Source: Octopus vulgaris
Lineage: Eukaryota
Assembly (NCBI GenBank): GCA_951406725.2
Contig: OX597818.1
Span: 29,140,001 to 29,204,000, forward strand
DNA: 64,000 bases
Reading direction: 5' to 3'
Shown: positions 35,041 through 61,505 of the stretch, in pieces
How positions within the stretch are numbered: the first letter of the stretch is position 1
How the letters are laid out: each line of letters begins with the position of its first letter
Made by a program: the position numbers and the translations under genes
The notes under the pieces: generated by a model
Seen by the model: the letters and a program-made list of their open reading frames with translations, nothing else
The model's database searches: none
Told to the model about the DNA's origin: nothing

Positions 35041-35095
<55 letters not shown>

Positions 35096-35247
35096 TACTT
35101 ATATATATATGTATATATATATATGTGTGTGTGTATAGATAGATAGATTGATAGATAGACAGACAGACAGACAGATATACATATGTGTATACCTAAACAT
35201 ACATACACATTTACATACATGGATATACCCACATATATATATATATA

Positions 35248-36630: not shown

Positions 36631-36699
36631 TTATATATATATATATAAGTATATATATATATATGTGTATGTATATATATGTGTGTATATATATATATA

Positions 36700-38143: not shown

Positions 38144-38185
38144 TATATATGTATATATATATGTGTATATATATATATTTATATA

Positions 38186-38670
38186 TCTCTATATATATAA
38201 AACTGAGAATGTCTGTCTGTCTGTGTGTTTCCATAAAACTTGAGAACTACACAACCAATTTCATTCAAATTTGACACATGCCTTACTTAGGGTCCATGTA
38301 GTTTCATGGGCACAAAAAAATGTTTAACTTCTTACCTAGAGCGAGCCCATAGCAATATCATATCTTCTCCACTATTTCAGTATTACGTAAAAGTGAAACA
38401 AAAGCATTTCTCTATTTTATGTCAGATGCTTTCACTTTAACAATAAAATAATAATAACAATTGAATTATATGTAGTAAGTAATAATTAAAATCAAACTAA
38501 AGTATAATATTATTGTAACATAACAAAAGTAAAAATAGCAATTGGTATAAAATTGCATAAATGACTTGAACTTGAATCAGTCGTTTCACATGAATGGGAA
38601 TAAATAAAAAATAAAATTTAAGTGGAGAAATGGAATAGTCCAGATGGAGGTGTGCACGGCTTTTACATTA
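38186..38670 (+). mobile_element. Helitron-like element 5' portion, immediately upstream of the array
   Basis: A|TCTCTATATATATAAAA..(GTCT)n start resembling the reverse complement of the 37098 end; 3' boundary uncertain. Confidence 0.4.
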
Positions 38671-38719
38671 GATTATTTGCTAATTAGCTAGCATTAAGTA
38701 TCTATATGAAGTTTGGCTG

Positions 38720-38726
38720 TATATAA
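38720..38726 (+). promoter_or_regulatory. TATA-like box ~30 bp upstream of unit 1
   Basis: TATATAA at canonical Pol II spacing from 38751; AT-rich context makes a chance match plausible. Confidence 0.3.
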
Positions 38727-38949
38727 TGTCTGTTTTCTCGAAAGATGCTTCTACTGAGTACCGCTTCTGTTAATTGCGTTATTTTTCTGTTTGCGTTGTG
38801 AGAAAATTGCTGCTCCCATTTAAGAGAGTCGAAGTTGTGAATTTATTGTTTGTACCAACTGCTTTGAACAGTGCCCGTTGTGAAACGGTGATTTTCGCCC
38901 TACGGGGCAGAAAATTTTGTATTATTTGAAATTTGCTACCTTTGAGGTG

Positions 38950-40373
38950 ATGGAGTTCGACTTAACGTCGAAGGACGATTTTCCCGTGATGGGAAAAGGT
39001 GAAACCATGGAAAACCCAGTAACCAAACAGTCATTCTCGGCCGCGGTGGGCGGCGCTATGATAGAGGTCGAATTCAAGATCGAACAGCTGTATGAATACA
39101 GGAATCTTGTAAAGGTGGAAGGAGGAGAGATAAGGCTGGTACCGCCGCAAGCGAAAGTGCAAGAAATCAAGGAAAGGATTGTAACTTATAAAGTGTATAG
39201 CTTTAAGGAAAAAAAGATTATGGACGCGAAAAACGAAATTGTTGAGAAGTGCCTGTCCCCGGTGTGGGACAGAATTCGTCACATCGCGAGAGGCGCACGT
39301 AGTGCTACGGTAGAGGTGCACTTCGACACGGCAGAAGTGGCGAAGGAGGTGTCGTCGTTAACCTTAAAAAGCGACGACATCATGTTGTTACCCTCGTATA
39401 TGGGGAAACGAACTGCAAAGTTAGTGGTAGATGACATACCCAGAGGGTACGACATCATGTGGGTGGCAGCGGCGGTACTACACAACATGGAGCGGGAAAT
39501 TTCAATTCTGCAAATGAGAAGGAAGGAAGTGGTACGCTGGAAGGGTCAGACCTTGGAACTCCTCGTACAGGCAGAGAACAAGATCTTGGAGAGCCTGCCT
39601 GACAGAATTTTTAATGAGGACGGCACGTCCATGAGAGTGTCGGTGGAGGGACGTAGACCCAGATGCTTCAAGTGTGGAGAGAAGGGTCACGTCCGGTCCA
39701 ACTGCATTAAGAAAAAAAGAACAGAAGAAACGCCTCCTCAAAGTGTACCTGTCACTGAAGGGGAGGAAACAAGCAAGAACAACCAAATGAAGAAGACAAG
39801 TACGGAAACGAAAACGGATTCAAAAGAACCAATGGACTACACACAAGTCACACACAAAAGAAAAAAGAGAACACCCAGGACTCCCCTCCCCAAACAAGGA
39901 AAAAAACAACAAACACAGCAGACACACACATTAAACAAATCCCCCAACCCTACCCCCATGGCACTGTTTTCATTGGAAAACAGTTTGCCAAACCCCTCCC
40001 CATAAAACAAGACATCAAAAAGTGCATATCGAAAAACGAAAGAATTATAGCCTTTGATGAAAAAAATGAAAAAGTTTACAAATGCTGCAAACTCGCGAGA
40101 TTTCCACTGTATAGTAGAACCTCAGATGGGAAGGCGACCGCTCGTTTCGCGAAGGTAGGGGAGAACGAGTGGAAGGAGGAGGTTCTTCAGGAACACCTGA
40201 GGAACCGTCTTATTAGAGATGTAACCAAGGAGGTAATGGAGGGTAAACTGGCAATAACCCCGGCAACCACACCCACCCAGAGCCCAGTGGCAACGCCGGT
40301 CAAGAACCCTGCAGCAACGGAAGAAAGGGAAGCAGGCAGATTGAAACTGTCATGCTCCCTCTCGCAACCGTGA
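38950..40373 (+). pseudogene. Unit 1 ORF1 (1-nt deletion)
   Basis: Identical to intact ORF1 up to the A-run, then shifts frame and stops at 40005. Confidence 0.85.
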
Positions 40374-40401
40374 GTATATACATTTCCTTCTCTCACCCAC
40401 A

Positions 40402-43400
40402 ATGGCTAAGCTGGGCTGTATAAATGTACGTGGAATGGGGTCGAAACGGAAACAAATTTGTTTCCTGAACGACCTCACGACACACAGTGTAGATATTGCT
40501 ATTGCAACCGAGTCCAAGATGAGCGAGACCCAAGCGTTCTCGCCTCTTCTAAATGGTTTCGAGAAATTTATTTCTCCTAGCCGAGGAAGAGGCAGAGGCG
40601 TGGCAGTCTTCATCAGGAAGAGCTTGGACTTGCAGGTAAGTACTGTCTTTCTGGACCCAGAAGGCAGGCTGGTTGTCCTGGATGTGACTCACGTAAGTAA
40701 ACAGTCCTTCAGGTTGGTAGCTGTCTACGCCCCGAACGAGGGTAGACAGACGGGTTTTTTCCGGAACCTGGAGCCCTTTTTAGCGACGTCGAAAACAGTA
40801 ATCCTAGTAGGGGACTTTAACACTGTCCTTGAAGCGCACATCGACAGTGTTGGCTCAACCAATAGGAAGGGGAACCCTAGCCTCAAGGGTCTACTAGAGA
40901 GCTTTGATCTAGTGGACCGTTACCGACTGGATGAGCCGAGCGTTCCACAGTGGACGTGGAGTAACAACGACGGCTCACACAGATCGTATCTAGATAGGAT
41001 ATTTATTAAGAAAAGAGATAAGGATACGTTTAGTTGTCCACAATTTCATATTGTACCTTACTCGGATCACAAATTTGTGACGTGTGAGGTGCAATTAGAC
41101 AAGTGTCATAGACAGGGACCCGGGTACTGGAAGCTGAACAAGGCTATTTTGAATTGTGAAGACTTCCGTACCCGGATTAAGGTGTTAGTTCAGAGGGCAT
41201 TGTGTGGCACCATCATTAACAATAGATGGTGGCACGCCCTCAAAAGAGCCATTCGTTTAGAGTCCGTCAGATTTAGCAATCAGCTAAGGATAGATAGGGC
41301 TAGTCTAGAGGGCGATTTAGTCAAGAATCTAGACGAGGCAATGGAAGCTGGCTCTGCATCCGGAGTGTTGGCGGCAAGGACGGTATTGTACCGTCACCTT
41401 AACTCCAAGTACGAAGGTTGCAGAGTCAGAGCTAAGCTGCGTGCTGGGAAATGAGAAGGTATTAACGTGGCCGGATGGGCCCGTCGTGTGGAGAGTAAGA
41501 GAGGCAATAGAGCCTCAATTAAATCTTTGACTGACGAACAGGGACAAAAGATCTATGGACAGGAGGAGATGCAAAAGTTTCTTCACCAGCATTTCGCTCG
41601 CGTGTTCGGGGGTGGTGGTTCGCTGGATCGGGGGAGGGCCTTAAAGGACTTCCTGGCCGGCGGACCGCGGCTCGCGGGGCGTGAAGTGGAGTGCTGTGAG
41701 GGAGCGATCACTCCCGCGGAGATAAAGGAGATACTGGCCGGATGCGCCGGGGAGAAGTCGCCGGGGTTGGATGGTCTGCCCTATGAGTTTTACCAAAGTA
41801 TGCCGGACTTGTTCGGGGGAATACTGGCAGGCGTCTACACGAACTGGCAGCAGAATGGGAGAATCCCCAGTTCTGTAAGCCGGGGAGTGGTGACGCTAAT
41901 CCAGAAAGACCCGAGCAAGGGGGATAATATTAGTAACTACAGGCCCATAACTCTACTTAATGTAGAGTTAAAGATTCTGGCCAAGGTGTTAGCAAAAAGG
42001 TTGACGGTTGTCGTGGAGAAACTTGTAGGGAGAGCACAGACATGTGCAATTCCAGGCAGGTCGATCCAGGACAATCTTCACCTTATACGCTACACCTTAG
42101 ATAGGGTGGGTAAATTAGCCGGCAAAGGTGGGGTAATGGTCCATTTAGACCAAAGTAAAGCCTTCGATAGGGTAGACCATGGGTACCTGGCGACGGTCCT
42201 CGAAGCGACTGGGCTGGGCCCTGAATTTCGCGGGTGGATCTCCGCTATGTATAGCGGCATCAAGTCCACCGTCCAGATAAACGGTTACCTAACGGAACCG
42301 TTTTCGATCAAGTGTTCAGTGCGTCAGGGGTGCCCCTTGTCACCACTTTTGTACGTATTGGCTCTTGAGCCACTGCTGCGAAAGTTGGAGAGGCTGGGGA
42401 GTAACTCGGATGAAATCGGAGGTGGGAGGACGGTGACTGCTTACGCGGATGACGTCACCCTCATCGTGTCCAAAGAGGCCCAACTACCTTGTGTGGAGGA
42501 GGTTATCAGAGGATACGAGGCGGTGGCAGGAGCAAAGGTTAACAAGGACAAATCGGTTGGCTTGCGCCTCGGCACCTGGAGGAGCAAGCCGATATCGTCC
42601 AGTGTCGTGGGACACTGGACGGATGGCCCTGTTAAGTTGCTGGGAGTTTGGTTTGGACCAGACTCCCAAACGGAGAAGAACTGGAGCGAGGTGACGAGCA
42701 GGGTGGAGGCCATAGTACGGACCTGGTCCGGAAGGTCTCTGTCCCTGAAAGGAAGGGCGGAGGTGGTGCAGATGTTTATTGCATCTGTAATCACCTACCG
42801 CCTGACCGTTGTCCCTTGCCCCGATTCATGGCTTAACAAGTTGGAACGAATCCTTTTCCGCTTTTTGTGGAAAGGAGGAAAGCCACTTGTGAGACGATCC
42901 GTTTGCTGCCAAGAACCGTTAAAGGGCGGGTTAGGGATGCCTTGGTTGATGATGCGCAGACATGCGTTGAGGCTAAGGCACCTCTGGCACCACCTGGAGG
43001 GTGATAAGGTGTGGAGTCCGCTGGCAGAGGGATTTTTCCCGAGACCGGCCTCCTTAGTTAATTTTAAACCCGGTTACATCAAAAGATGGAAACTGACTCC
43101 ATGGCAAAAAGAGTGCCGACAGGCACTCACGCTGATCCACAAGACGGGTAAGGCCGGCTGCGGAAATACCACCTCGGTATTTTATAGAGGGCTGGTGGAG
43201 GTAAAAAATGACGACGTCCTAGGAGGGGCTCTGGGGTTTGATGAAGACCAGCTCGCCAACCTGTTTAAAAAAACTTTCAGGTCGGGGTATTTGGATAATT
43301 TCCAAAGATCCCTGGCCTGGCAGTGCTACAGGAATGCTTTACCTGTTCGCGAGAAGTTATCGCGGCACGGAGTTCAAGTGCCACCGACGTGTCCAAGGTG

Positions 43401-43791
43401 CGGGTTGGACGATGAAACCGTCCAGCACGCCTTTGTTCACTGTCGGAAGTTGTCCGACTTGATAAGTTACGCAGAACACGTGTTGTCCCATCTGGGACGA
43501 GTACAGCTGTCGGCTGAGTCTATGATTAAGATGATACCGCCAACTGGACTCTCGAAGGAAGGTGAGGCATGTTTCCACTGCACGGTGGCAGTGGTAAAGG
43601 AATGCATGTGGAGAACGAGAATGGAAGGAGCCGCGATAGGGTCCTTCATCTCCGGACCCGGCTTGCTCACTTACTTCAGATATCATCTGAAGAGCAAAAT
43701 GGGGCTGGAGAAGAGGACCCTGCCGCGGGGTGTGTACGAGAAAAGATGGAAGGAAGTAGAAAGAAAGGTGGGTGTGAGAAACCCAGCTTGA
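40402..43791 (+). pseudogene. Unit 1 ORF2 with nonsense codon
   Basis: Split into 40402-41454 and 41467-43791 by TGA where the other units have CGA. Confidence 0.9.
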
Positions 43792-44011
43792 TCATGGAGG
43801 AGAGAGGAAGTGGAAGCTGCAGGGCCTCACAAATTGCCGGGGTGTAAAAACGCCAGTGAGACGACAAGGTTACCTACTGTTGTTTGCTATACTAGTTAAG
43901 CAAAGGTTAATATTTTTATAACGAATTTAAACAATTTTTAAACGATTCTCTTAAATGTTTTTGTATGTATGTCCTGTATTTGTAATTCTGTGTACCGATT
44001 TTTATAATCGT

Positions 44012-44017
44012 AATAAA
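44012..44017 (+). terminator. AATAAA polyadenylation signal at unit end (present in units 1-4)
   Basis: AATAAA lies 7 nt before the next unit's head. Confidence 0.6.
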
Positions 44018-44223
44018 GAAATATCTACTGAGTACCGCTTCTGTTAATTGCGTTATTTTTCTGTTTGCGTTGTGAGAAAATTGCTGCCTCCATTTAAGAG
44101 AGTCGAAGTTGTGAATTTATTGTTTGTACCAACTGCTTTGAACAGTGGCCGTTGTGAAACGGTGATTTTCGCCCTACGGGGCAGAAAATTTTGTATTATT
44201 TGAAATTTGCTACCTTTGAGGTG

Positions 44224-45647
44224 ATGGAGTTCGACTTAACGTCGAAGGACGATTTTCCCGTGATGGGAAAAGGTGAAACCATGGAAAACCCAGTAACCAA
44301 ACAGTCATTCTCGGCCGCGGTGGGCGGCGCTATGATAGAGGTCGAATTCAAGATCGAACAGCTGTATGAATACAGGAATCTTGTAAAGGTGGAAGGAGGA
44401 GAGATAAGGCTGGTACCGCCGCAAGCGAAAGTGCAAGAAATCAAGGAAAGGATTGTAACTTATAAAGTGTATAGCTTTAAGGAAAAAAAGATTATGGACG
44501 CGAAAAACGAAATTGTTGAGAAGTGCCTGTCCCCGGTGTGGGACAGAATTCGTCACATCGCGAGAGGCGCACGTAGTGCTACGGTAGAGGTGCACTTCGA
44601 CACGGCAGAAGTGGCGAAGGAGGTGTCGTCGTTAACCTTAAAAAGCGACGACATCATGTTGTTACCCTCGTATATGGGGAAACGAACTGCAAAGTTAGTG
44701 GTAGATGACATACCCAGAGGGTACGACATCATGTGGGTGGCAGCGGCGGTACTACACAACATGGAGCGGGAAATTTCAATTCTGCAAATGAGAAGGAAGG
44801 AAGTGGTACGCTGGAAGGGTCAGACCTTGGAACTCCTCGTACAGGCAGAGAACAAGATCTTGGAGAGCCTGCCTGACAGAATTTTTAATGAGGACGGCAC
44901 GTCCATGAGAGTGTCGGTGGAGGGACGTAGACCCAGATGCTTCAAGTGTGGAGAGAAGGGTCACGTCCGGTCCAACTGCATTAAGAAAAAAAGAACAGAA
45001 GAAACGCCTCCTCAAAGTGTACCTGTCACTGAAGGGGAGGAAACAAGCAAGAACAACCAAATGAAGAAGACAAGTACGGAAACGAAAACGGATTCAAAAG
45101 AACCAATGGACTACACACAAGTCACACACAAAAGAAAAAAGAGAACACCCAGGACTCCCCTCCCCAAACAAGGAAAAAAACAACAAACACAGCAGACACA
45201 CACATTAAACAAATCCCCCAACCCTACCCCCATGGCACTGTTTTCATTGGAAAACAGTTTGCCAAACCCCTCCCCATAAAACAAGACATCAAAAAGTGCA
45301 TATCGAAAAACGAAAGAATTATAGCCTTTGATGAAAAAAATGAAAAAGTTTACAAATGCTGCAAACTCGCGAGATTTCCACTGTATAGTAGAACCTCAGA
45401 TGGGAAGGCGACCGCTCGTTTCGCGAAGGTAGGGGAGAACGAGTGGAAGGAGGAGGTTCTTCAGGAACACCTGAGGAACCGTCTTATTAGAGATGTAACC
45501 AAGGAGGTAATGGAGGGTAAACTGGCAATAACCCCGGCAACCACACCCACCCAGAGCCCAGTGGCAACGCCGGTCAAGAACCCTGCAGCAACGGAAGAAA
45601 GGGAAGCAGGCAGATTGAAACTGTCATGCTCCCTCTCGCAACCGTGA
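44224..45647 (+). pseudogene. Unit 2 ORF1 (1-nt deletion)
   Basis: Same frameshift as unit 1; stops at 45279. Confidence 0.85.
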
Positions 45648-45675
45648 GTATATACATTTCCTTCTCTCACCCACA

Positions 45676-48600
45676 ATGGCTAAGCTGGGCTGTATAAATG
45701 TACGTGGAATGGGGTCGAAACGGAAACAAATTTGTTTCCTGAACGACCTCACGACACACAGTGTAGATATTGCTATTGCAACCGAGTCCAAGATGAGCGA
45801 GACCCAAGCGTTCTCGCCTCTTCTAAATGGTTTCGAGAAATTTATTTCTCCTAGCCGAGGAAGAGGCAGAGGCGTGGCAGTCTTCATCAGGAAGAGCTTG
45901 GACTTGCAGGTAAGTACTGTCTTTCTGGACCCAGAAGGCAGGCTGGTTGTCCTGGATGTGACTCACGTAAGTAAACAGTCCTTCAGGTTGGTAGCTGTCT
46001 ACGCCCCGAACGAGGGTAGACAGACGGGTTTTTTCCGGAACCTGGAGCCCTTTTTAGCGACGTCGAAAACAGTAATCCTAGTAGGGGACTTTAACACTGT
46101 CCTTGAAGCGCACATCGACAGTGTTGGCTCAACCAATAGGAAGGGGAACCCTAGCCTCAAGGGTCTACTAGAGAGCTTTGATCTAGTGGACCGTTACCGA
46201 CTGGATGAGCCGAGCGTTCCACAGTGGACGTGGAGTAACAACGACGGCTCACACAGATCGTATCTAGATAGGATATTTATTAAGAAAAGAGATAAGGATA
46301 CGTTTAGTTGTCCACAATTTCATATTGTACCTTACTCGGATCACAAATTTGTGACGTGTGAGGTGCAATTAGACAAGTGTCATAGACAGGGACCCGGGTA
46401 CTGGAAGCTGAACAAGGCTATTTTGAATTGTGAAGACTTCCGTACCCGGATTAAGGTGTTAGTTCAGAGGGCATTGTGTGGCACCATCATTAACAATAGA
46501 TGGTGGCACGCCCTCAAAAGAGCCATTAGTTTAGAGTCCGTCAGATTTAGCAATCAGCTAAGGATAGATAGGGCTAGTCTAGAGGGCGATTTAGTCAAGA
46601 ATCTAGACGAGGCAATGGAAGCTGGCTCTGCATCCGGAGTGTTGGCGGCAAGGACGGTATTGTACCGTCACCTTAACTCCAAGTACGAAGGTTGCAGAGT
46701 CAGAGCTAAGCTGCGTGCTGGGAAACGAGAAGGTATTAACGTGGCCGGATGGGCCCGTCGTGTGGAGAGTAAGAGAGGCAATAGAGCCTCAATTAAATCT
46801 TTGACTGACGAACAGGGACAAAAGATCTATGGACAGGAGGAGATGCAAAAGTTTCTTCACCAGCATTTCGCTCGCGTGTTCGGGGGTGGTGGTTCGCTGG
46901 ATCGGGGGAGGGCCTTAAAGGACTTCCTGGCCGGCGGACCGCGGCTCGCGGGGCGTGAAGTGGAGTGCTGTGAGGGAGCGATCACTCCCGCGGAGATAAA
47001 GGAGATACTGGCCGGATGCGCCGGGGAGAAGTCGCCGGGGTTGGATGGTCTGCCCTATGAGTTTTACCAAAGTATGCCGGACTTGTTCGGGGGAATACTG
47101 GCAGGCGTCTACACGAACTGGCAGCAGAATGGGAGAATCCCCAGTTCTGTAAGCCGGGGAGTGGTGACGCTAATCCAGAAAGACCCGAGCAAGGGGGATA
47201 ATATTAGTAACTACAGGCCCATAACTCTACTTAATGTAGAGTTAAAGATTCTGGCCAAGGTGTTAGCAAAAAGGTTGACGGTTGTCGTGGAGAAACTTGT
47301 AGGGAGAGCACAGACATGTGCAATTCCAGGCAGGTCGATCCAGGACAATCTTCACCTTATACGCTACACCTTAGATAGGGTGGGTAAATTAGCCGGCAAA
47401 GGTGGGGTAATGGTCCATTTAGACCAAAGTAAAGCCTTCGATAGGGTAGACCATGGGTACCTGGCGACGGTCCTCGAAGCGACTGGGCTGGGCCCTGAAT
47501 TTCGCGGGTGGATCTCCGCTATGTATAGCGGCATCAAGTCCACCGTCCAGATAAACGGTTACCTAACGGAACCGTTTTCGATCAAGTGTTCAGTGCGTCA
47601 GGGGTGCCCCTTGTCACCACTTTTGTACGTATTGGCTCTTGAGCCACTGCTGCGAAAGTTGGAGAGGCTGGGGAGTAACTCGGATGAAATCGGAGGTGGG
47701 AGGACGGTGACTGCTTACGCGGATGACGTCACCCTCATCGTGTCCAAAGAGGCCCAACTACCTTGTGTGGAGGAGGTTATCAGAGGATACGAGGCGGTGG
47801 CAGGAGCAAAGGTTAACAAGGACAAATCGGTTGGCTTGCGCCTCGGCACCTGGAGGAGCAAGCCGATATCGTCCAGTGTCGTGGGACACTGGACGGATGG
47901 CCCTGTTAAGTTGCTGGGAGTTTGGTTTGGACCAGACTCCCAAACGGAGAAGAACTGGAGCGAGGTGACGAGCAGGGTGGAGGCCATAGTACGGACCTGG
48001 TCCGGAAGGTCTCTGTCCCTGAAAGGAAGGGCGGAGGTGGTGCAGATGTTTATTGCATCTGTAATCACCTACCGCCTGACCGTTGTCCCTTGCCCCGATT
48101 CATGGCTTAACAAGTTGGAACGAATCCTTTTCCGCTTTTTGTGGAAAGGAGGAAAGCCACTTGTGAGACGATCCGTTTGCTGCCAAGAACCGTTAAAGGG
48201 CGGGTTAGGGATGCCTTGGTTGATGATGCGCAGACATGCGTTGAGGCTAAGGCACCTCTGGCACCACCTGGAGGGTGATAAGGTGTGGAGTCCGCTGGCA
48301 GAGGGATTTTTCCCGAGACCGGCCTCCTTAGTTAATTTTAAACCCGGTTACATCAAAAGATGGAAACTGACTCCATGGCAAAAAGAGTGCCGACAGGCAC
48401 TCACGCTGATCCACAAGACGGGTAAGGCCGGCTGCGGAAATACCACCTCGGTATTTTATAGAGGGCTGGTGGAGGTAAAAAATGACGACGTCCTAGGAGG
48501 GGCTCTGGGGTTTGATGAAGACCAGCTCGCCAACCTGTTTAAAAAAACTTTCAGGTCGGGGTATTTGGATAATTTCCAAAGATCCCTGGCCTGGCAGTGC

Positions 48601-49065
48601 TACAGGAATGCTTTACCTGTTCGCGAGAAGTTATCGCGGCACGGAGTTCAAGTGCCACCGACGTGTCCAAGGTGCGGGTTGGACGATGAAACCGTCCAGC
48701 ACGCCTTTGTTCACTGTCGGAAGTTGTCCGACTTGATAAGTTACGCAGAACACGTGTTGTCCCATCTGGGACGAGTACAGCTGTCGGCTGAGTCTATGAT
48801 TAAGATGATACCGCCAACTGGACTCTCGAAGGAAGGTGAGGCATGTTTCCACTGCACGGTGGCAGTGGTAAAGGAATGCATGTGGAGAACGAGAATGGAA
48901 GGAGCCGCGATAGGGTCCTTCATCTCCGGACCCGGCTTGCTCACTTACTTCAGATATCATCTGAAGAGCAAAATGGGGCTGGAGAAGAGGACCCTGCCGC
49001 GGGGTGTGTACGAGAAAAGATGGAAGGAAGTAGAAAGAAAGGTGGGTGTGAGAAACCCAGCTTGA
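45676..49065 (+). CDS. ORF2: APE endonuclease, reverse transcriptase, C-terminal CCHC finger (1129 aa)
   Basis: INVRG, TESK, VYAPN, GDFN, LDRI, SDH; PGLDG, YRPITLLN, DQSKAFDRV, RQGCPLSP, YADD; GGLGMP; CPRC..HAFVHC. Confidence 0.96.
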   Translation: MAKLGCINVRGMGSKRKQICFLNDLTTHSVDIAIATESKMSETQAFSPLLNGFEKFISPSRGRGRGVAVFIRKSLDLQVSTVFLDPEGRLVVLDVTHVSKQSFRLVAVYAPNEGRQTGFFRNLEPFLATSKTVILVGDFNTVLEAHIDSVGSTNRKGNPSLKGLLESFDLVDRYRLDEPSVPQWTWSNNDGSHRSYLDRIFIKKRDKDTFSCPQFHIVPYSDHKFVTCEVQLDKCHRQGPGYWKLNKAILNCEDFRTRIKVLVQRALCGTIINNRWWHALKRAISLESVRFSNQLRIDRASLEGDLVKNLDEAMEAGSASGVLAARTVLYRHLNSKYEGCRVRAKLRAGKREGINVAGWARRVESKRGNRASIKSLTDEQGQKIYGQEEMQKFLHQHFARVFGGGGSLDRGRALKDFLAGGPRLAGREVECCEGAITPAEIKEILAGCAGEKSPGLDGLPYEFYQSMPDLFGGILAGVYTNWQQNGRIPSSVSRGVVTLIQKDPSKGDNISNYRPITLLNVELKILAKVLAKRLTVVVEKLVGRAQTCAIPGRSIQDNLHLIRYTLDRVGKLAGKGGVMVHLDQSKAFDRVDHGYLATVLEATGLGPEFRGWISAMYSGIKSTVQINGYLTEPFSIKCSVRQGCPLSPLLYVLALEPLLRKLERLGSNSDEIGGGRTVTAYADDVTLIVSKEAQLPCVEEVIRGYEAVAGAKVNKDKSVGLRLGTWRSKPISSSVVGHWTDGPVKLLGVWFGPDSQTEKNWSEVTSRVEAIVRTWSGRSLSLKGRAEVVQMFIASVITYRLTVVPCPDSWLNKLERILFRFLWKGGKPLVRRSVCCQEPLKGGLGMPWLMMRRHALRLRHLWHHLEGDKVWSPLAEGFFPRPASLVNFKPGYIKRWKLTPWQKECRQALTLIHKTGKAGCGNTTSVFYRGLVEVKNDDVLGGALGFDEDQLANLFKKTFRSGYLDNFQRSLAWQCYRNALPVREKLSRHGVQVPPTCPRCGLDDETVQHAFVHCRKLSDLISYAEHVLSHLGRVQLSAESMIKMIPPTGLSKEGEACFHCTVAVVKECMWRTRMEGAAIGSFISGPGLLTYFRYHLKSKMGLEKRTLPRGVYEKRWKEVERKVGVRNPA

Positions 49066-49499
49066 TCATGGAGGAGAGAGAGGAAGTGGAAGCTGCAGGG
49101 CCTCACAAATTGCCGGGGTGTAAAAACGCCAGTGAGACGACAAGGTTACCTACTGTTGTTTGCTATACTAGTTAAGCAAAGGTTAATATTTTTATAACGA
49201 ATTTAAACAATTTTTAAACGATTCTCTTAAATGTTTTTGTATGTATGTCCTGTATTTGTAATTCTGTGTACCGATTTTTATAATCGTAATAAAGAAATAT
49301 CTACTGAGTACCGCTTCTGTTAATTGCGTTATTTTTCTGTTTGCGTTGTGAGAAAATTGCTGCCTCCATTTAAGAGAGTCGAAGTTGTGAATTTATTGTT
49401 TGTACCAACTGCTTTGAACAGTGGCCGTTGTGAAACGGTGATTTTCGCCCTACGGGGCAGAAAATTTTGTATTATTTGAAATTTGCTACCTTTGAGGTG

Positions 49500-50924
49500 A
49501 TGGAGTTCGACTTAACGTCGAAGGACGATTTTCCCGTGATGGGAAAAGGTGAAACCATGGAAAACCCAGTAACCAAACAGTCATTCTCGGCCGCGGTGGG
49601 CGGCGCTATGATAGAGGTCGAATTCAAGATCGAACAGCTGTATGAATACAGGAATCTTGTAAAGGTGGAAGGAGGAGAGATAAGGCTGGTACCGCCGCAA
49701 GCGAAAGTGCAAGAAATCAAGGAAAGGATTGTAACTTATAAAGTGTATAGCTTTAAGGAAAAAAAGATTATGGACGCGAAAAACGAAATTGTTGAGAAGT
49801 GCCTGTCCCCGGTGTGGGACAGAATTCGTCACATCGCGAGAGGCGCACGTAGTGCTACGGTAGAGGTGCACTTCGACACGGCAGAAGTGGCGAAGGAGGT
49901 GTCGTCGTTAACCTTAAAAAGCGACGACATCATGTTGTTACCCTCGTATATGGGGAAACGAACTGCAAAGTTAGTGGTAGATGACATACCCAGAGGGTAC
50001 GACATCATGTGGGTGGCAGCGGCGGTACTACACAACATGGAGCGGGAAATTTCAATTCTGCAAATGAGAAGGAAGGAAGTGGTACGCTGGAAGGGTCAGA
50101 CCTTGGAACTCCTCGTACAGGCAGAGAACAAGATCTTGGAGAGCCTGCCTGACAGAATTTTTAATGAGGACGGCACGTCCATGAGAGTGTCGGTGGAGGG
50201 ACGTAGACCCAGATGCTTCAAGTGTGGAGAGAAGGGTCACGTCCGGTCCAACTGCATTAAGAAAAAAAGAACAGAAGAAACGCCTCCTCAAAGTGTACCT
50301 GTCACTGAAGGGGAGGAAACAAGCAAGAACAACCAAATGAAGAAGACAAGTACGGAAACGAAAACGGATTCAAAAGAACCAATGGACTACACACAAGTCA
50401 CACACAAAAGAAAAAAAGAGAACACCCAGGACTCCCCTCCCCAAACAAGGAAAAAAACAACAAACACAGCAGACACACACATTAAACAAATCCCCCAACC
50501 CTACCCCCATGGCACTGTTTTCATTGGAAAACAGTTTGCCAAACCCCTCCCCATAAAACAAGACATCAAAAAGTGCATATCGAAAAACGAAAGAATTATA
50601 GCCTTTGATGAAAAAAATGAAAAAGTTTACAAATGCTGCAAACTCGCGAGATTTCCACTGTATAGTAGAACCTCAGATGGGAAGGCGACCGCTCGTTTCG
50701 CGAAGGTAGGGGAGAACGAGTGGAAGGAGGAGGTTCTTCAGGAACACCTGAGGAACCGTCTTATTAGAGATGTAACCAAGGAGGTAATGGAGGGTAAACT
50801 GGCAATAACCCCGGCAACCACACCCACCCAGAGCCCAGTGGCAACGCCGGTCAAGAACCCTGCAGCAACGGAAGAAAGGGAAGCAGGCAGATTGAAACTG
50901 TCATGCTCCCTCTCGCAACCGTGA
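49500..50924 (+). CDS. ORF1: gag-like nucleic-acid-binding protein with CCHC zinc knuckle (474 aa from first ATG)
   Basis: CFKCGEKGHVRSNC knuckle and basic low-complexity linker; the track's TTG start at 49467 is less likely. Confidence 0.9.
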   Translation: MEFDLTSKDDFPVMGKGETMENPVTKQSFSAAVGGAMIEVEFKIEQLYEYRNLVKVEGGEIRLVPPQAKVQEIKERIVTYKVYSFKEKKIMDAKNEIVEKCLSPVWDRIRHIARGARSATVEVHFDTAEVAKEVSSLTLKSDDIMLLPSYMGKRTAKLVVDDIPRGYDIMWVAAAVLHNMEREISILQMRRKEVVRWKGQTLELLVQAENKILESLPDRIFNEDGTSMRVSVEGRRPRCFKCGEKGHVRSNCIKKKRTEETPPQSVPVTEGEETSKNNQMKKTSTETKTDSKEPMDYTQVTHKRKKENTQDSPPQTRKKTTNTADTHIKQIPQPYPHGTVFIGKQFAKPLPIKQDIKKCISKNERIIAFDEKNEKVYKCCKLARFPLYSRTSDGKATARFAKVGENEWKEEVLQEHLRNRLIRDVTKEVMEGKLAITPATTPTQSPVATPVKNPAATEEREAGRLKLSCSLSQP

Positions 50925-50952
50925 GTATATACATTTCCTTCTCTCACCCACA

Positions 50953-53900
50953 ATGGCTAAGCTGGGCTGTATAAATGTACGTGGAATGGGGTCGAAACGG
51001 AAACAAATTTGTTTCCTGAACGACCTCACGACACACAGTGTAGATATTGCTATTGCAACCGAGTCCAAGATGAGCGAGACCCAAGCGTTCTCGCCTCTTC
51101 TAAATGGTTTCGAGAAATTTATTTCTCCTAGCCGAGGAAGAGGCAGAGGCGTGGCAGTCTTCATCAGGAAGAGCTTGGACTTGCAGGTAAGTACTGTCTT
51201 TCTGGACCCAGAAGGCAGGCTGGTTGTCCTGGATGTGACTCACGTAAGTAAACAGTCCTTCAGGTTGGTAGCTGTCTACGCCCCGAACGAGGGTAGACAG
51301 ACGGGTTTTTTCCGGAACCTGGAGCCCTTTTTAGCGACGTCGAAAACAGTAATCCTAGTAGGGGACTTTAACACTGTCCTTGAAGCGCACATCGACAGTG
51401 TTGGCTCAACCAATAGGAAGGGGAACCCTAGCCTCAAGGGTCTACTAGAGAGCTTTGATCTAGTGGACCGTTACCGACTGGATGAGCCGAGCGTTCCACA
51501 GTGGACGTGGAGTAACAACGACGGCTCACACAGATCGTATCTAGATAGGATATTTATTAAGAAAAGAGATAAGGATACGTTTAGTTGTCCACAATTTCAT
51601 ATTGTACCTTACTCGGATCACAAATTTGTGACGTGTGAGGTGCAATTAGACAAGTGTCATAGACAGGGACCCGGGTACTGGAAGCTGAACAAGGCTATTT
51701 TGAATTGTGAAGACTTCCGTACCCGGATTAAGGTGTTAGTTCAGAGGGCATTGTGTGGCACCATCATTAACAATAGATGGTGGCACGCCCTCAAAAGAGC
51801 CATTCGTTTAGAGTCCGTCAGATTTAGCAATCAGCTAAGGATAGATAGGGCTAGTCTAGAGGGCGATTTAGTCAAGAATCTAGACGAGGCAATGGAAGCT
51901 GGCTCTGCATCCGGAGTGTTGGCGGCAAGGACGGTATTGTACCGTCACCTTAACTCCAAGTACGAAGGTTGCAGAGTCAGAGCTAAGCTGCGTGCTGGGA
52001 AACGAGAAGGTATTAACGTGGCCGGATGGGCCCGTCGTGTGGAGAGTAAGAGAGGCAATAGAGCCTCAATTAAATCTTTGACTGACGAACAGGGACAAAA
52101 GATCTATGGACAGGAGGAGATGCAAAAGTTTCTTCACCAGCATTTCGCTCGCGTGTTCGGGGGTGGTGGTTCGCTGGATCGGGGGAGGGCCTTAAAGGAC
52201 TTCCTGGCCGGCGGACCGCGGCTCGCGGGGCGTGAAGTGGAGTGCTGTGAGGGAGCGATCACTCCCGCGGAGATAAAGGAGATACTGGCCGGATGCGCCG
52301 GGGAGAAGTCGCCGGGGTTGGATGGTCTGCCCTATGAGTTTTACCAAAGTATGCCGGACTTGTTCGGGGGAATACTGGCAGGCGTCTACACGAACTGGCA
52401 GCAGAATGGGAGAATCCCCAGTTCTGTAAGCCGGGGAGTGGTGACGCTAATCCAGAAAGACCCGAGCAAGGGGGATAATATTAGTAACTACAGGCCCATA
52501 ACTCTACTTAATGTAGAGTTAAAGATTCTGGCCAAGGTGTTAGCAAAAAGGTTGACGGTTGTCGTGGAGAAACTTGTAGGGAGAGCACAGACATGTGCAA
52601 TTCCAGGCAGGTCGATCCAGGACAATCTTCACCTTATACGCTACACCTTAGATAGGGTGGGTAAATTAGCCGGCAAAGGTGGGGTAATGGTCCATTTAGA
52701 CCAAAGTAAAGCCTTCGATAGGGTAGACCATGGGTACCTGGCGACGGTCCTCGAAGCGACTGGGCTGGGCCCTGAATTTCGCGGGTGGATCTCCGCTATG
52801 TATAGCGGCATCAAGTCCACCGTCCAGATAAACGGTTACCTAACGGAACCGTTTTCGATCAAGTGTTCAGTGCGTCAGGGGTGCCCCTTGTCACCACTTT
52901 TGTACGTATTGGCTCTTGAGCCACTGCTGCGAAAGTTGGAGAGGCTGGGGAGTAACTCGGATGAAATCGGAGGTGGGAGGACGGTGACTGCTTACGCGGA
53001 TGACGTCACCCTCATCGTGTCCAAAGAGGCCCAACTACCTTGTGTGGAGGAGGTTATCAGAGGATACGAGGCGGTGGCAGGAGCAAAGGTTAACAAGGAC
53101 AAATCGGTTGGCTTGCGCCTCGGCACCTGGAGGAGCAAGCCGATATCGTCCAGTGTCGTGGGACACTGGACGGATGGCCCTGTTAAGTTGCTGGGAGTTT
53201 GGTTTGGACCAGACTCCCAAACGGAGAAGAACTGGAGCGAGGTGACGAGCAGGGTGGAGGCCATAGTACGGACCTGGTCCGGAAGGTCTCTGTCCCTGAA
53301 AGGAAGGGCGGAGGTGGTGCAGATGTTTATTGCATCTGTAATCACCTACCGCCTGACCGTTGTCCCTTGCCCCGATTCATGGCTTAACAAGTTGGAACGA
53401 ATCCTTTTCCGCTTTTTGTGGAAAGGAGGAAAGCCACTTGTGAGACGATCCGTTTGCTGCCAAGAACCGTTAAAGGGCGGGTTAGGGATGCCTTGGTTGA
53501 TGATGCGCAGACATGCGTTGAGGCTAAGGCACCTCTGGCACCACCTGGAGGGTGATAAGGTGTGGAGTCCGCTGGCAGAGGGATTTTTCCCGAGACCGGC
53601 CTCCTTAGTTAATTTTAAACCCGGTTACATCAAAAGATGGAAACTGACTCCATGGCAAAAAGAGTGCCGACAGGCACTCACGCTGATCCACAAGACGGGT
53701 AAGGCCGGCTGCGGAAATACCACCTCGGTATTTTATAGAGGGCTGGTGGAGGTAAAAAATGACGACGTCCTAGGAGGGGCTCTGGGGTTTGATGAAGACC
53801 AGCTCGCCAACCTGTTTAAAAAACTTTCAGGTCGGGGTATTTGGATAATTTCCAAAGATCCCTGGCCTGGCAGTGCTACAGGAATGCTTTACCTGTTCGC

Positions 53901-54341
53901 GAGAAGTTATCGCGGCACGGAGTTCAAGTGCCACCGACGTGTCCAAGGTGCGGGTTGGACGATGAAACCGTCCAGCACGCCTTTGTTCACTGTCGGAAGT
54001 TGTCCGACTTGATAAGTTACGCAGAACACGTGTTGTCCCATCTGGGACGAGTACAGCTGTCGGCTGAGTCTATGATTAAGATGATACCGCCAACTGGACT
54101 CTCGAAGGAAGGTGAGGCATGTTTCCACTGCACGGTGGCAGTGGTAAAGGAATGCATGTGGAGAACGAGAATGGAAGGAGCCGCGATAGGGTCCTTCATC
54201 TCCGGACCCGGCTTGCTCACTTACTTCAGATATCATCTGAAGAGCAAAATGGGGCTGGAGAGGAGGACACTGCCGCGGGGTGTGTACGAGAAAAGATGGA
54301 AGGAAGTAGAAAGAAAGGTGGGTGTGAGAAACCCAGCTTGA
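50953..54341 (+). pseudogene. Unit 3 ORF2 (frameshift near C-terminus)
   Basis: Frame ends at 54012; the true C-terminus is in the 53841-54341 frame. Confidence 0.85.
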
Positions 54342-54775
54342 TCATGGAGGAGAGAGAGGAAGTGGAAGCTGCAGGGCCTCACAAATTGCCGGGGTGTAAA
54401 AACGCCAGTGAGACGACAAGGTTACCTACTGTTGTTTGCTATACTAGTTAAGCAAAGGTTAATATTTTTATAACGAATTTAAACAATTTTTAAACGATTC
54501 TCTTAAATGTTTTTGTATGTATGTCCTGTATTTGTAATTCTGTGTACCGATTTTTATAATCGTAATAAAGAAATATCTACTGAGTACCGCTTCTGTTAAT
54601 TGCGTTATTTTTCTGTTTGCGTTGTGAGAAAATTGCTGCTCCCATTTAAGAGAGTCGAAGTTGTGAATTTATTGTTTGTACCAACTGCTTTGAACAGTGC
54701 CCGTTGTGAAACGGTGATTTTCGCCCTACGGGGCAGAAAATTTTGTATTATTTGAAATTTGCTACCTTTGAGGTG

Positions 54776-56200
54776 ATGGAGTTCGACTTAACGTCGAAGG
54801 ACGATTTTCCCGTGATGGGAAAAGGTGAAACCATGGAAAACCCAGTAACCAAACAGTCATTCTCGGCCGCGGTGGGCGGCGCTATGATAGAGGTCGAATT
54901 CAAGATCGAACAGCTGTATGAATACAGGAATCTTGTAAAGGTGGAAGGAGGAGAGATAAGGCTGGTACCGCCGCAAGCGAAAGTGCAAGAAATCAAGGAA
55001 AGGATTGTAACTTATAAAGTGTATAGCTTTAAGGAAAAAAAGATTATGGACGCGAAAAACGAAATTGTTGAGAAGTGCCTGTCCCCGGTGTGGGACAGAA
55101 TTCGTCACATCGCGAGAGGCGCACGTAGTGCTACGGTAGAGGTGCACTTCGACACGGCAGAAGTGGCGAAGGAGGTGTCGTCGTTAACCTTAAAAAGCGA
55201 CGACATCATGTTGTTACCCTCGTATATGGGGAAACGAACTGCAAAGTTAGTGGTAGATGACATACCCAGAGGGTACGACATCATGTGGGTGGCAGCGGCG
55301 GTACTACACAACATGGAGCGGGAAATTTCAATTCTGCAAATGAGAAGGAAGGAAGTGGTACGCTGGAAGGGTCAGACCTTGGAACTCCTCGTACAGGCAG
55401 AGAACAAGATCTTGGAGAGCCTGCCTGACAGAATTTTTAATGAGGACGGCACGTCCATGAGAGTGTCGGTGGAGGGACGTAGACCCAGATGCTTCAAGTG
55501 TGGAGAGAAGGGTCACGTCCGGTCCAACTGCATTAAGAAAAAAAGAACAGAAGAAACGCCTCCTCAAAGTGTACCTGTCACTGAAGGGGAGGAAACAAGC
55601 AAGAACAACCAAATGAAGAAGACAAGTACGGAAACGAAAACGGATTCAAAAGAACCAATGGACTACACACAAGTCACACACAAAAGAAAAAAAGAGAACA
55701 CCCAGGACTCCCCTCCCCAAACAAGGAAAAAAACAACAAACACAGCAGACACACACATTAAACAAATCCCCCAACCCTACCCCCATGGCACTGTTTTCAT
55801 TGGAAAACAGTTTGCCAAACCCCTCCCCATAAAACAAGACATCAAAAAGTGCATATCGAAAAACGAAAGAATTATAGCCTTTGATGAAAAAAATGAAAAA
55901 GTTTACAAATGCTGCAAACTCGCGAGATTTCCACTGTATAGTAGAACCTCAGATGGGAAGGCGACCGCTCGTTTCGCGAAGGTAGGGGAGAACGAGTGGA
56001 AGGAGGAGGTTCTTCAGGAACACCTGAGGAACCGTCTTATTAGAGATGTAACCAAGGAGGTAATGGAGGGTAAACTGGCAATAACTCCGGCAACCACACC
56101 CACCCAGAGCCCAGTGGCAACGCCGGTCAAGAACCCTGCAGCAACGGAAGAAAGGGAAGCAGGCAGATTGAAACTGTCATGCTCCCTCTCGCAACCGTGA
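54776..56200 (+). CDS. ORF1 zinc-knuckle protein
   Basis: Same protein as unit 3 ORF1. Confidence 0.9.
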   Translation: MEFDLTSKDDFPVMGKGETMENPVTKQSFSAAVGGAMIEVEFKIEQLYEYRNLVKVEGGEIRLVPPQAKVQEIKERIVTYKVYSFKEKKIMDAKNEIVEKCLSPVWDRIRHIARGARSATVEVHFDTAEVAKEVSSLTLKSDDIMLLPSYMGKRTAKLVVDDIPRGYDIMWVAAAVLHNMEREISILQMRRKEVVRWKGQTLELLVQAENKILESLPDRIFNEDGTSMRVSVEGRRPRCFKCGEKGHVRSNCIKKKRTEETPPQSVPVTEGEETSKNNQMKKTSTETKTDSKEPMDYTQVTHKRKKENTQDSPPQTRKKTTNTADTHIKQIPQPYPHGTVFIGKQFAKPLPIKQDIKKCISKNERIIAFDEKNEKVYKCCKLARFPLYSRTSDGKATARFAKVGENEWKEEVLQEHLRNRLIRDVTKEVMEGKLAITPATTPTQSPVATPVKNPAATEEREAGRLKLSCSLSQP

Positions 56201-56228
56201 GTATATACATTTCCTTCTCTCACCCACA

Positions 56229-59200
56229 ATGGCTAAGCTGGGCTGTATAAATGTACGTGGAATGGGGTCGAAACGGAAACAAATTTGTTTCCTGGACGAC
56301 CTCACGACACACGATATAGATATTGCTGTTGCAACCGAGTCCAAGATGAGCGAGACCCAAGCGTTCTCGCCTCTTCTAAATGGTTTCGAGAAATTTATTT
56401 CTCCTAGCCGAGGAAGAGGCAGAGGCGTGGCAGTCTTCATCAGGAAGAGCTTGGACGTGCAGGTAAGTACTGTCTTTCTGGACCCAGAAGGTAGGCTGGT
56501 TGTCCTGGATGTGACTCACGCAAGTAAACAGTCCTTCAGGTTGGGAGCTGTCTACGCCCCGAACGAGGGTAGACAGACGGGTTTCTTTCGGAACCTGGAG
56601 CCCTTTCTAGCGACGTCAAAAACAGTAATCCTAGTAGGGGACTTTAACACTGTCCTTGAAGCGCACATCGACAATGTTGGCTCAACCAATAGGAAGGGGA
56701 ACCCTAGCCTCAAGGGCCTACTAGAGAGCTTTGATCTAGTGGACCGTTACCGACTGGATGAGCCGAGCGTTCCACAGTGGACGTGGAGTAACAACGACGG
56801 CTCACACAGATCGTACCTAGATAGGATAATTATTAAGAAAAGAGATAAGGATACGTTTAGTTGTCCACAATTTCATATTGTACCTTACTCGGATCACAAG
56901 TTTGTGACGTGTGAGGTGCAATTAGACAAGTGTCATAGACAGGGACCCGGGTACTGGAAGCTGAACAAGGCTATTTTGAATTGTGAAGACTTCCGTTCCC
57001 GGATTAAGGTGTTAGTTCAGAGGGCATTGTGTGGCACCATCACTAATAATAGATGGTGGCACGCCCTCAAAAGAGCCATTCGTTTAGAGTCCGTCAGATT
57101 TAGCAATCAGCTAAGGATAGATAGGGCTAGTCTAGAGGGTGATTTAGTTAAGAATCTAGACGAGGCAATGGAAGCTGGCTCTGCATCCGGAGTGTTGGCG
57201 GCAAGGACGGTATTGTACCGTCACCTTAACTCCAAACACGAAGGTTGCAGAGTCAGAGCTAAGCTGCGCGCTGGAAAACGAGAAGGTATTAACGTGGCCG
57301 GATGGGCCCGTCGTGTGGAGAGTAAGAGAGGCAATAGAGCCTCAATTAAATCTTTGACTGACGAACAGGGACAAAAGATCTATGGACAGGAGGAGATGCA
57401 AAAGTTCCTTCACCAGCACTTCGCTCGCGTGTTCGGGGGTGGCGGTTCGCTGGATCGGGGGAGGGCCTTAAAGGACTTCCTGGCCGGCGGACCGCGGCTT
57501 GCGGGGCGTGAAGTGGAGTGCTGTGAAGGAGCGATCACTCCCGCGGAGATAAAGGAGATTCTGGCCGGATGCGCCGGGGAGAAGTCGCCGGGGTTGGATG
57601 GTCTGCCCTACGAGTTTTACCAAAGTATGCCGGACTTGTTCGGGGAGATACTGGCAGGCGTCTACACGAACTGGCAGCAGAATGGGAGAATCCCCAGCTC
57701 TGTAAGCCGGGGAGTGGTGACGCTAATCCGGAAAGACCCGAGCAAGGGGGATAATATTAGTAACTACAGGCCCATAACTCTACTTAATGTAGAGTTAAAG
57801 ATTTTGGCCAAGGTGTTAGCAAAAAGGTTGACGGTTGTCGTGGAGAAACTTGTAGGGAGAGCACAGACATGTGCAATTCCAGGCAGGTCGATCCAGGACA
57901 ATCTTCACCTTATACGCTACACCTTAGATAGGGTGGGTAAATTAGCCGGCAAAGGTGGGGTAATGGTCCATTTAGACCAAAGTAAAGCCTTCGATAGGGT
58001 AGACCACGGGTACCTGGCGACGGTCCTCGAAGCGACTGGGCTGGGCCCTGAATTTCGCGGGTGGATCTCCGCTATGTATAGCGGCATCAAGTCCACCGTC
58101 CAGATAAACGGTTACCTAACGGAACCGTTTTCGATCAAGTGTTCAGTGCGTCAGGGGTGCCCCTTGTCACCACTTTTGTATGTATTGGCTCTTGAGCCAC
58201 TGCTGCGAAGGTTGGAAAGGCTGGGGAGTAACTCGGATGAAATCGGAGGCGGGAGGACGGTGACTGCTTACGCGGATGACGTCACCCTCATCGTGTCCAA
58301 AGAGGCCCAACTACCTTGTGTGGAGGAGGTTATCAGAGGATACGAGGCGGTGGCAGGAGCAAAGGTTAACAAGGACAAATCGGTTGGCTTGCGCCTCGGC
58401 ACCTGGAGGAGCAAGCCGATATCGTCCAGTGTCGTGGGACACTGGACGGATGGCCCTGTTAAGTTGCTGGGAGTTTGGTTTGGACCAGACTCCCAAACGG
58501 AGAAGAACTGGAGCGAGGTGACGAGCAGGGTGGAGGCCATAGTACGGACCTGGTCCGGAAGGTCTCTGTCCCTGAAAGGAAGGGCGGAGGTGGTGCAGAT
58601 GTTTATTGCATCTGTAATCACCTACCGCCTGACCGTTGTCCCTTGCCCCGATTCATGGCTTAACAAGTTGGAACGAATCCTTTTCCGCTTTTTGTGGAAA
58701 GGAGGAAAGCCACTTGTGAGACGATCCGTTTGCTGCCAAGAACCGTTAAAGGGCGGGTTAGGGATGCCTTGGTTGATGATGCGCAGACATGCGTTGAGGC
58801 TAAGGCACCTCTGGCACCACCTGGAGGGTGATAAGGTGTGGAGTCCGCTGGCAGAGGGATTTTTCCCGAGACCGGCCTCCTTAGTTAATTTTAAACCCGG
58901 TTACATCAAAAGATGGAAACTGACTCCATGGCAAAAAGAGTGCCGACAGGCACTCACGCTGATCCACAAGACGGGTAAGGCCGGCTGCGGAAATACCACC
59001 TCGGTATTTTATAGAGGGCTGGTGGAGGTAAAAAATGACGACGTCCTAGGAGGGGCTCTGGGGTTTGATGAAGACCAGCTCGCCAACCTGTTTAAAAAAA
59101 CTTTCAGGTCGGGGTATTTGGATAATTTCCAAAGATCCCTGGCCTGGCAGTGCTACAGGAATGCTTTACCTGTTCGCGAGAAGTTATCGCGGCACGGAGT

Positions 59201-59618: not shown

Positions 59619-60052
59619 TCATGGAGGAGAGAGAGGAAGTGGAAGCTGCAGGGCCTCACAAATTGCCGGGGTGTAAAAACGCCAGTGAGACGACAAGGTT
59701 ACCTACTGTTGTTTGCTATACTAGTTAAGCAAAGGTTAATATTTTTATAACGAATTTAAACAATTTTTAAACGATTCTCTTAAATGTTTTTGTATGTATG
59801 TCCTGTATTTGTAATTCTGTGTACCGATTTTTATAATCGTAATAAAGAAATATCTACTGAGTACCGCTTCTGTTAATTGCGTTATTTTTCTGTTTGCGTT
59901 GTGAGAAAATTGCTGCCTCCATTTAAGAGAGTCGAAGTTGTGAATTTATTGTTTGTACCAACTGCTTTGAACAGTGCCCGTTGTGAAACGGTGATTTTCG
60001 CCCTACGGGGCAGAAAATTTTGTATTATTTGAAATTTGCTACCTTTGAGGTG

Positions 60053-61477: not shown

Positions 61478-61505
61478 GTATATACATTTCCTTCTCTCAC
61501 CCACA

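Follow-up and report, generated by a model that had tools for sequence, protein, structure and literature searches.

A tail-less L1/Tx1-type LINE in Octopus vulgaris that appears to insert at RNA polymerase II start sites and may be guided by the target-site duplications on its RNA

Targeting by LINEs is usually explained by sequence recognition through the element's endonuclease, and tethering of a LINE to promoters has been described for Pol III genes. Among the Tx1 clade, Xenopus Tx1 resides in Tx1D, the crocodilian Tx1-Mar and SINEU-3 reside in Mariner-N4_AMi, and Tx1-8_Crp and Tx1-4_AMi insert in LTR elements (Tx1 passages of Kojima 2015, PMC4494074). According to the same passages, these families share with the octopus LINE described here the independent insertion of an APE-RT LINE into transposon copies, tandems that sandwich a 16-bp target-site duplication (TSD) and 5' extensions derived from donor flank; whereas their target choice is ascribed mainly to the endonuclease, with one repeat type per family, the octopus LINE occupies many unrelated sequences, often with TATA at -30, using the same endonuclease. 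Promoter targeting is not mentioned in those Tx1 passages, nor in the sections of two further papers that list Tx1 as target-specific (PMC4640811, PMC3747384), and the main-text passages of a 2026 octopus repeat annotation, which reports 13 recently active L1-Tx1 families, do not refer to TATA or promoters (PMC13282606).

Other systems share single features with the octopus LINE. Drosophila R1 forms TSD-separated arrays through insertion into the 5' TSD of an existing copy, and flank sequence on its RNA yields precise junctions, while R2 relies on co-transcription (relevant parts of Stage and Eickbush 2009, PMC2718515); the R1/R2 target is, however, fixed in the 28S gene of Pol I units, whereas that of the octopus LINE is positional, lies at Pol II promoters and would change with each TSD. 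In the passages of PMC5911963 dealing with Dictyostelium TRE5-A (L1 clade) and yeast Ty3, insertion is likewise measured from a promoter, since TFIIIB, which contains TBP, positions both elements at Pol III genes, Ty3 at the start site itself. These are Pol III (tRNA, 5S) promoters and not Pol II TATA promoters as in the octopus; TRE5-A lands 44–54 bp upstream in the opposite orientation with an oligo(A) tail, whereas the octopus LINE lies in the same orientation at about +1 without a tail; and Ty3, unlike the octopus LINE, uses an integrase. HeT-A carries short 5' tags from upstream transcription-start DNA, as the octopus LINE does, but its promoter lies in the 3' UTR of the upstream element and it adds to chromosome ends (relevant part of 10.1101/782904, citing George et al. 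2010). The tail of the octopus LINE has no TATA at -30 and its tags are old TSDs; a HeT-A-like promoter in its 3' end was considered and rejected, as the TATAAT of the tail is at -21. In the literature searched, mostly the main text of open papers, we found no account of a LINE that uses Pol II start sites as insertion targets.

The window is a stretch of 64,000 nt from contig OX597818.1 of the Octopus vulgaris assembly (GCA_951406725.2, positions 29,140,001 to 29,204,000). It contains most of an array of six head-to-tail LINE units (Table 1), which extends beyond the window; unit 6, which is frameshifted, and the right TSD reach to about G000:C5:29210421. The units recur with a period of about 5,276 bp and are 99.4–99.9% identical, and CTACTGAGTACC is found at window positions 38751, 44025, 49301, 54577 and 59854, preceded by AATAAAGAAATAT at four copies and by GAAAGATGCTT at the first. 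The tail-less junctions of the original prediction are therefore real, poly(A) being absent, and the junction itself is a known feature, that of a TSD-spaced LINE array. A 16-mer, TCTACTGAGTACCGCT, forms the spacer and begins at each of the five TSD positions of Table 1. It had been taken for the head of the next unit, which is wrong: it is host DNA, and solo copies of the element run into host flank instead. Its alternative reading as a TSD (CTACTGAG..) was borne out, as it is duplicated at the right end of the array, with one base changed, although what follows there is host repeat DNA and not the unique DNA that had been envisaged. The AATAAA near the junction was likewise correctly seen but misplaced by one base: it lies 6 nt from the element end and not 7, because the T before CTACT belongs to the 16-mer. 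The near-palindrome within the TSD was rejected as a signal, since a 9-nt palindrome was present in this one alone of 13 TSDs and six had none of at least 5 nt. A contig from another sample (run X1, possibly RNA) crosses the junction at 43997–44194 with one difference, which argues against an assembly artefact.

Table 1. Features of the LINE array and its host repeat (positions in the window)
Feature	Position	Strand	Remark
Helitron-like host repeat, 5' part	38188..38749	+	same ends and different outer flanks at filled and empty copies
TATA box TATATAAT, 30 nt before TSD	38720..38727	+	
Left TSD 16-mer, probably over the transcription start	38750..38765	+	donor-type allele, unlike right-end copy
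LINE unit 1	38766..44023	+	both ORFs frameshifted
AATAAA poly(A) signal	44012..44017	+	6 nt before invariant 3' end
TSD spacer, units 1/2	44024..44039	+	
Lineage-specific 5' layer ahead of shared core	44040..44057	+	begins TCT like a TSD
LINE unit 2	44040..49299	+	ORF2 intact, ORF1 frameshifted
TSD spacer	49300..49315	+	
LINE unit 3	49316..54575	+	ORF2 frameshifted near its end
TSD spacer	54576..54591	+	
LINE unit 4	54592..59852	+	both ORFs open
ORF1, 474 aa, CCHC zinc knuckle (PF00098)	54776..56200	+	unit 4
ORF2, 1129 aa: APE endonuclease PF03372, reverse transcriptase PF00078, zf-RVT PF13966	56229..59618	+	
TSD spacer	59853..59868	+	
LINE unit 5	59869..64000	+	both ORFs open; continues past window end

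Two further observations concern these sequences. An X1 contig covering window 43711–44026 shows the 3' end of the element, a different 15-nt spacer starting with TCT and then a 5'-truncated copy, another TSD-spaced tandem which is not seen in this assembly. Elsewhere in the window, positions 2700–32500 hold many decayed other repeats, 63–85% mutually identical and in both orientations.

The repeat that hosts the array is non-autonomous and Helitron-like. Helitrons are recognised by a 5' TC, a subterminal hairpin, a 3' CTAG, the lack of a TSD and TA-rich landing sites; the host repeat has these hallmarks, starting with TC followed by TATATATATAAAACTGAG at 38188 and ending with a hairpin and CTAG in its 3' part, about 1 kb past the last 16-mer and outside the window. 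This 3' part (L041, G000:C5 ~29210700–29211300) also holds a relic of another Tx1-like family. A 29-nt pattern across the insertion site gave 275 matches, and all 30 of those fetched were empty, while 12 host copies on 9 contigs bore the element at the same base, six of them as a solo copy, four as a dimer, one as a trimer and one as the hexamer of the window. Since the same flanks occur filled and empty, the 16-mer is host DNA that was duplicated on insertion. Empty sites, for which the original prediction had suggested a search, made up 25 of the 35 sites of a short deletion variant of the host (10 filled) and 15 of the 17 sites of a GATGCT variant (2 filled), and all of about 230 other hosts (a number obtained by subtraction), which have one or two mismatches, were empty.

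In its protein architecture the element conforms to the L1 group, with an ORF2 that combines APE endonuclease, reverse transcriptase and a C-terminal zinc finger and a separate CCHC ORF1; the best solved relative of ORF2 in the PDB is human L1 ORF2p (E 1e-67, against 5e-25 for R2). We classify it provisionally as an L1/Tx1-type LINE, 'Tx1-type' being based on this architecture and on general features of the clade; named Tx1 references were absent both from the PDB matches and from the homologue search, whose 20 proteins had neither informative names nor a helpful genomic context. The C-terminal domain of ORF1 had no usable Atlas match, and a single-sequence fold model of ORF1 was too poor for use (mean pLDDT 39.5). 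The TSDs measure 12–19 bp, mostly 15–17, and 5'-truncated copies are present at C9:89.3M, C8:93.3M, C1:66.3M and C18:79.7M. A poly(A) tract was found at none of the 52 catalogued right ends, so that a mammalian-type L1 tail is lacking, and the A-tails that the original prediction had named as a counter-sign did not appear.

Like Tx1, the element shows a target preference, with the same base used in 12 Helitron copies and with four promoter families among its targets. These 12 loci, and the tendency of known Tx1 families to target transposons and to stack around a TSD (Tx1 passages of PMC4494074), would suit an endonuclease that reads the Helitron sequence surrounding the 16-mer, in the manner of Tx1L at Tx1D. 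Against this, about 19 different target sequences were identified, so the family is not specific for the 16-mer. Copies from Helitron sites, unique sites and the C9 array also have endonucleases that are identical over 245 aa, and the unrelated sites occupied with this endonuclease have only (T/G)CT in common. A single target set by the endonuclease is thus not what we find, and we regard this explanation as extremely improbable. The first bases of the TSD track the lineage of the element (TCT in young copies, CC in older ones and GAG in the zinc-finger group), and no endonuclease residue separates TCT-start from CC-start targets.

The 12 filled Helitrons could also be descended from one another, one Helitron insertion having been spread by rolling-circle transposition and the arrays having arisen through unequal exchange and gene conversion. 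Filled hosts do have complete Helitron ends and identical junctions, and filling is limited to one host lineage. However, young units differ by 0.02–0.17% while their adjoining hosts differ by 2.3–4.7% (28 pairs at the eight loci with young units, four loci with older or mosaic units having been left out), so that divergence is about 35 times lower among the units than among their hosts, which argues for independent insertions. Host-specific differences come within 3–5 nt of the TSD, filled and empty hosts are interspersed in the host tree, and both deletion variants include filled as well as empty copies. Some window units, moreover, have their nearest relatives on other contigs, a single substitution separating unit 1 from a C2 copy and unit 5 from C11 copies. 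The 13 TSD-spaced arrays, spaced by their own TSDs as in R1, have six different spacers, supporting the earlier proposal that insertions re-use their own TSD; the five other spacer types and the TATA spacing described below would go unexplained by Helitron spread, which we consider very improbable as the whole account.

Recombination nevertheless acts too, as shown by mosaic units and by identical neighbouring units at C11 and C7. The middle of unit 4 is a mosaic that matches a unique-site copy at C6:42.1M, and the array at C9:59.2M, which has at least ten units with its own TSD as spacer, contains paired units. Unequal exchange at the DNA level probably contributes to array growth, and conversion, by producing mosaics, blurs both the ages of units and the endonuclease comparison. 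The C9 array itself (G000:C9:59.20-59.25M, 16-bp spacer) runs into an assembly gap and includes one young unit among older ones and several near-identical pairs.

What many of the dissimilar targets share is a TATA box at a fixed distance upstream, the main determinant, which the original prediction, otherwise partly supported, had missed. In a set of 15 independent targets, where each repeat family was scored a single time, the two Helitron variants were kept apart and six copies without a findable TSD were left out, a strict TATAWA started at -31 to -28 before the TSD in 6 (background 2.0%, P 2e-7) and was absent in 9, while a relaxed TATA motif was present in 8 (background 2.9%, P 3e-9). 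At other offsets from -58 to -7 the relaxed motif was not found in any target, and the observed count was reached in 0 of 20,000 shuffles. As the motif had been noticed post hoc while reading flanks, further copies were fetched as a held-out test, and the strict TATA was at -30 in 3 of 4 held-out targets (P 3e-5). The host TATA of the window, TATATAAT, is at exactly -30; it occurs in this host only among 42 long-type hosts, 5 of which were unreadable by the motif pattern, and 29 have TATGTAAT. Owing to a short deletion downstream of its TATA, the target at C14:37.1M has its TSD 5 nt farther along the sequence, with the TATA remaining at -30, and at C27:23.38M, where the deletion is longer, the TSD has moved likewise with the TATA at about -28 (the boundary being approximate); the distance from the promoter element is thus fixed at -30 to -28 and the site shifts with deletions, as might be expected of a TRE5- or Ty3-like mode of placement. 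Two 5'-truncated copies, at C9:89.3M and C1:66.3M, also have a TATA at -30, so selection for full-length copies that are expressed does not by itself account for the association. By the textbook spacing, a TATA that begins near -30 would place the nick at about the transcription start, and we consider it very likely that the family targets transcription start sites. The short Helitron variant, however, has no TATA at -30, yet it was filled most often, so that a second route is needed there.

The nature of the targets was examined further. Three of the target families consist of tandem TATA monomers from 5' UTRs of LINEs which, judging by their motifs, we take to be of the RTE clade. In five cases (L244, L245, L246, L260 and L261) the RTE-type 5' UTRs contained tandem monomers of about 500–600 bp with a TATA each, reminiscent of the monomer promoters of mouse L1. 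The fourth family is a C2H2 zinc-finger gene promoter with a first exon and a GTAAGT donor, 2.4 kb beyond which lies a zinc-finger frame of 715 aa; at eight zinc-finger-promoter loci the strict TATA was at -30 in three, at -28 in one and at -33 in two, and the remaining two had TATTAAAG. Relative to 630 background windows, CpG density reached the 84th percentile or higher at 11 of the 13 sites outside repeats, among them 6 of the 7 that have no TATA. At four sites, that of the window Helitron included, the TSD is followed by the 5' part of another Tx1-like family (ORF1 24–36% identical), and related families therefore seem to stack at the same starts, which suggests, judged from sequence, that several families may share start-site targeting. 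The site at C7:13.5M is the start of another element's ORF2, with no obvious promoter.

The targets comprise RTE promoters, zinc-finger genes and the Helitron, and no Pol III genes. A small-RNA gene as target was rejected, there being no Rfam match at gathering score in window 33000–45000, where weak miRNA matches fall on microsatellites; a ribosomal-protein TCT promoter at C2:182.8M was not supported either, that site being the 5' end of another Tx1-like element. Four sites without a TATA had 135 open frames downstream, and a Pfam scan of 38 of these gave other retroelements only. Among separate observations, another Tx1-like 5' UTR with ORF1 lies directly behind the TSD at C2:182.8M, C27:22.93M and C27:26.27M, and a 12.9-kb tandem duplication in three repeats at G000:C2:14.69-14.73M (L266–L269) carries a C2H2 zinc-finger gene whose promoter has an internally deleted LINE copy inside.

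Two copies have the TSD of another locus at their 5' ends. Unit 2 at C7:109.68M has a 5' tag of 16 nt of another promoter family's TSD, and the copy at C7:13.5M has one of 17 nt of a third family's TSD; other copies have one or two extra 5' layers beginning (T)CT like TSDs. Donors were traced for 2 of 34 distinct 5' layers, and two more layers matched the copy's own target family, against 0.5 matches of at least 10 nt for shuffled layers. The 5' layer of the window units in Table 1 is probably an older captured TSD, for which a donor was not found. At 3 of the 12 Helitron loci, the window array among them, the right-end 16-mer differs from the left copies; in two of these three cases the right-end form is the commonest empty-host allele, and the left TSDs at all three keep the common donor allele. 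Together the foreign TSDs serving as 5' tags and the donor alleles of left TSDs point to an RNA whose 5' end includes the left TSD of the donor. On the 3' side, the opening base reads T instead of the target's G at one locus, C2:173.9M, and at two junctions of the C9:59.2M array, and one C27 junction includes part of a further 16-mer whose allele differs, as would fit an RNA-borne TSD at either end. Flank on the RNA thus appears better supported for the 5' end than for the 3' end, where cleavage inside the TSD and the resulting terminal redundancy would be consistent with an AAUAAA only 6 nt before the element end.

Such RNA could in principle suffice, as in the original prediction, with terminal redundancy and inherited microhomology directing each insertion and the TATA being incidental or an expression bias. 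TSD starts do follow lineage without a matching change in the endonuclease, foreign tags exist, and TATA-less short Helitrons were filled in 10 of 35 cases; but homology in itself predicts neither a TATA at one fixed distance from unrelated targets, nor a site that moves with the TATA after deletions, nor a TATA at dead 5'-truncated copies, and we hold this account, taken alone, to be quite improbable. The converse proposal is that ORF1p/ORF2p find the starts, that short Helitrons are active TATA-less promoters and that 5' tags are passive by-products. All of the TATA, deletion-shift and CpG evidence is in keeping with it, as are the binding of TRE5-A ORF1 to TBP, Brf1 and Bdp1 (relevant passages of PMC5911963) and a fill rate with no clear dependence on the one-base TSD allele (of 4 short hosts whose T allele is a mismatch, 1 was filled). 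It does not, however, account for 5' junctions that are base-exact at 22 of 23 Helitron-site units, for left TSDs with donor alleles, for TSD starts inherited by lineage without endonuclease change, or for young units in mid-array without a TATA at -30 (C9:59.2M unit 3), and we regard it as unlikely. The short hosts are also a weak point of the reading preferred below, as homology is there confounded with host lineage and the roughly 230 near-identical hosts are empty.

The reading we prefer, and think somewhat better than an even chance from the sequence comparisons, combines both: a tail-less L1/Tx1-type LINE would insert at Pol II starts, borrow the promoter there and make RNA which, having the TSD at both ends, may re-home to identical sites. 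Insertion sites enriched for TATA 28–30 nt upstream, and following the TATA when it shifts, would be presented to the element's protein by the pre-initiation complex (TBP/TFIID) or through direct reading of the TATA, with a nick at about +1. The RNA would then bear the donor's left TSD at its 5' end, as the tags indirectly indicate, and the AAUAAA 6 nt before the end would lead to cleavage inside the right TSD or the flank. Read-through bases could pair with the nicked strand, so that copying would start at the fixed end of the element and poly(A) would stay uncopied. The new copy would be transcribed from the captured promoter, starting in the left TSD, and both ends of its RNA could pair with the same 16-mer in its own TSD, in other Helitrons or in other RTE and zinc-finger promoters. 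Such double-end pairing would give exact re-insertion, tandem arrays and dispersed homing, including to TATA-less short Helitrons, and unequal exchange and gene conversion would later reshuffle the units.

A broader formulation, to which we give slightly less than even credence, is that the LINE docks on Pol II core promoters and inserts at +1 without a promoter of its own, each TSD acting as an RNA guide at both ends; specificity would be reprogrammed with each landing in a repeated promoter without any change in the protein, and related families would stack at the same starts, including those of expanded C2H2 zinc-finger genes. Start-site targeting and TSD-tagged RNA would be what is new here beyond the known TSD-spaced arrays, Tx1-in-transposon insertions and donor-derived 5' extensions. 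If true, insertion measured from the TATA together with the use of the element's own TSD as RNA guide would add a principle of targeting and explain quick target switching in Tx1-type families; active copies would be predicted to silence or capture host promoters, here including those of zinc-finger genes, and LINE-based gene insertion tools would also be touched by the finding.

Two minor observations were made on decayed copies. In the endonuclease (ORF2 residues 111–126), many older copies from different loci have a frameshift in common, which may reflect either a homopolymer hotspot or a defective copy spread in trans. Finally, a 76-nt 3' fragment of the element at G000:C1:114.657M (L219) lies between duplicated stretches of about 65 nt, far above the usual TSD length.
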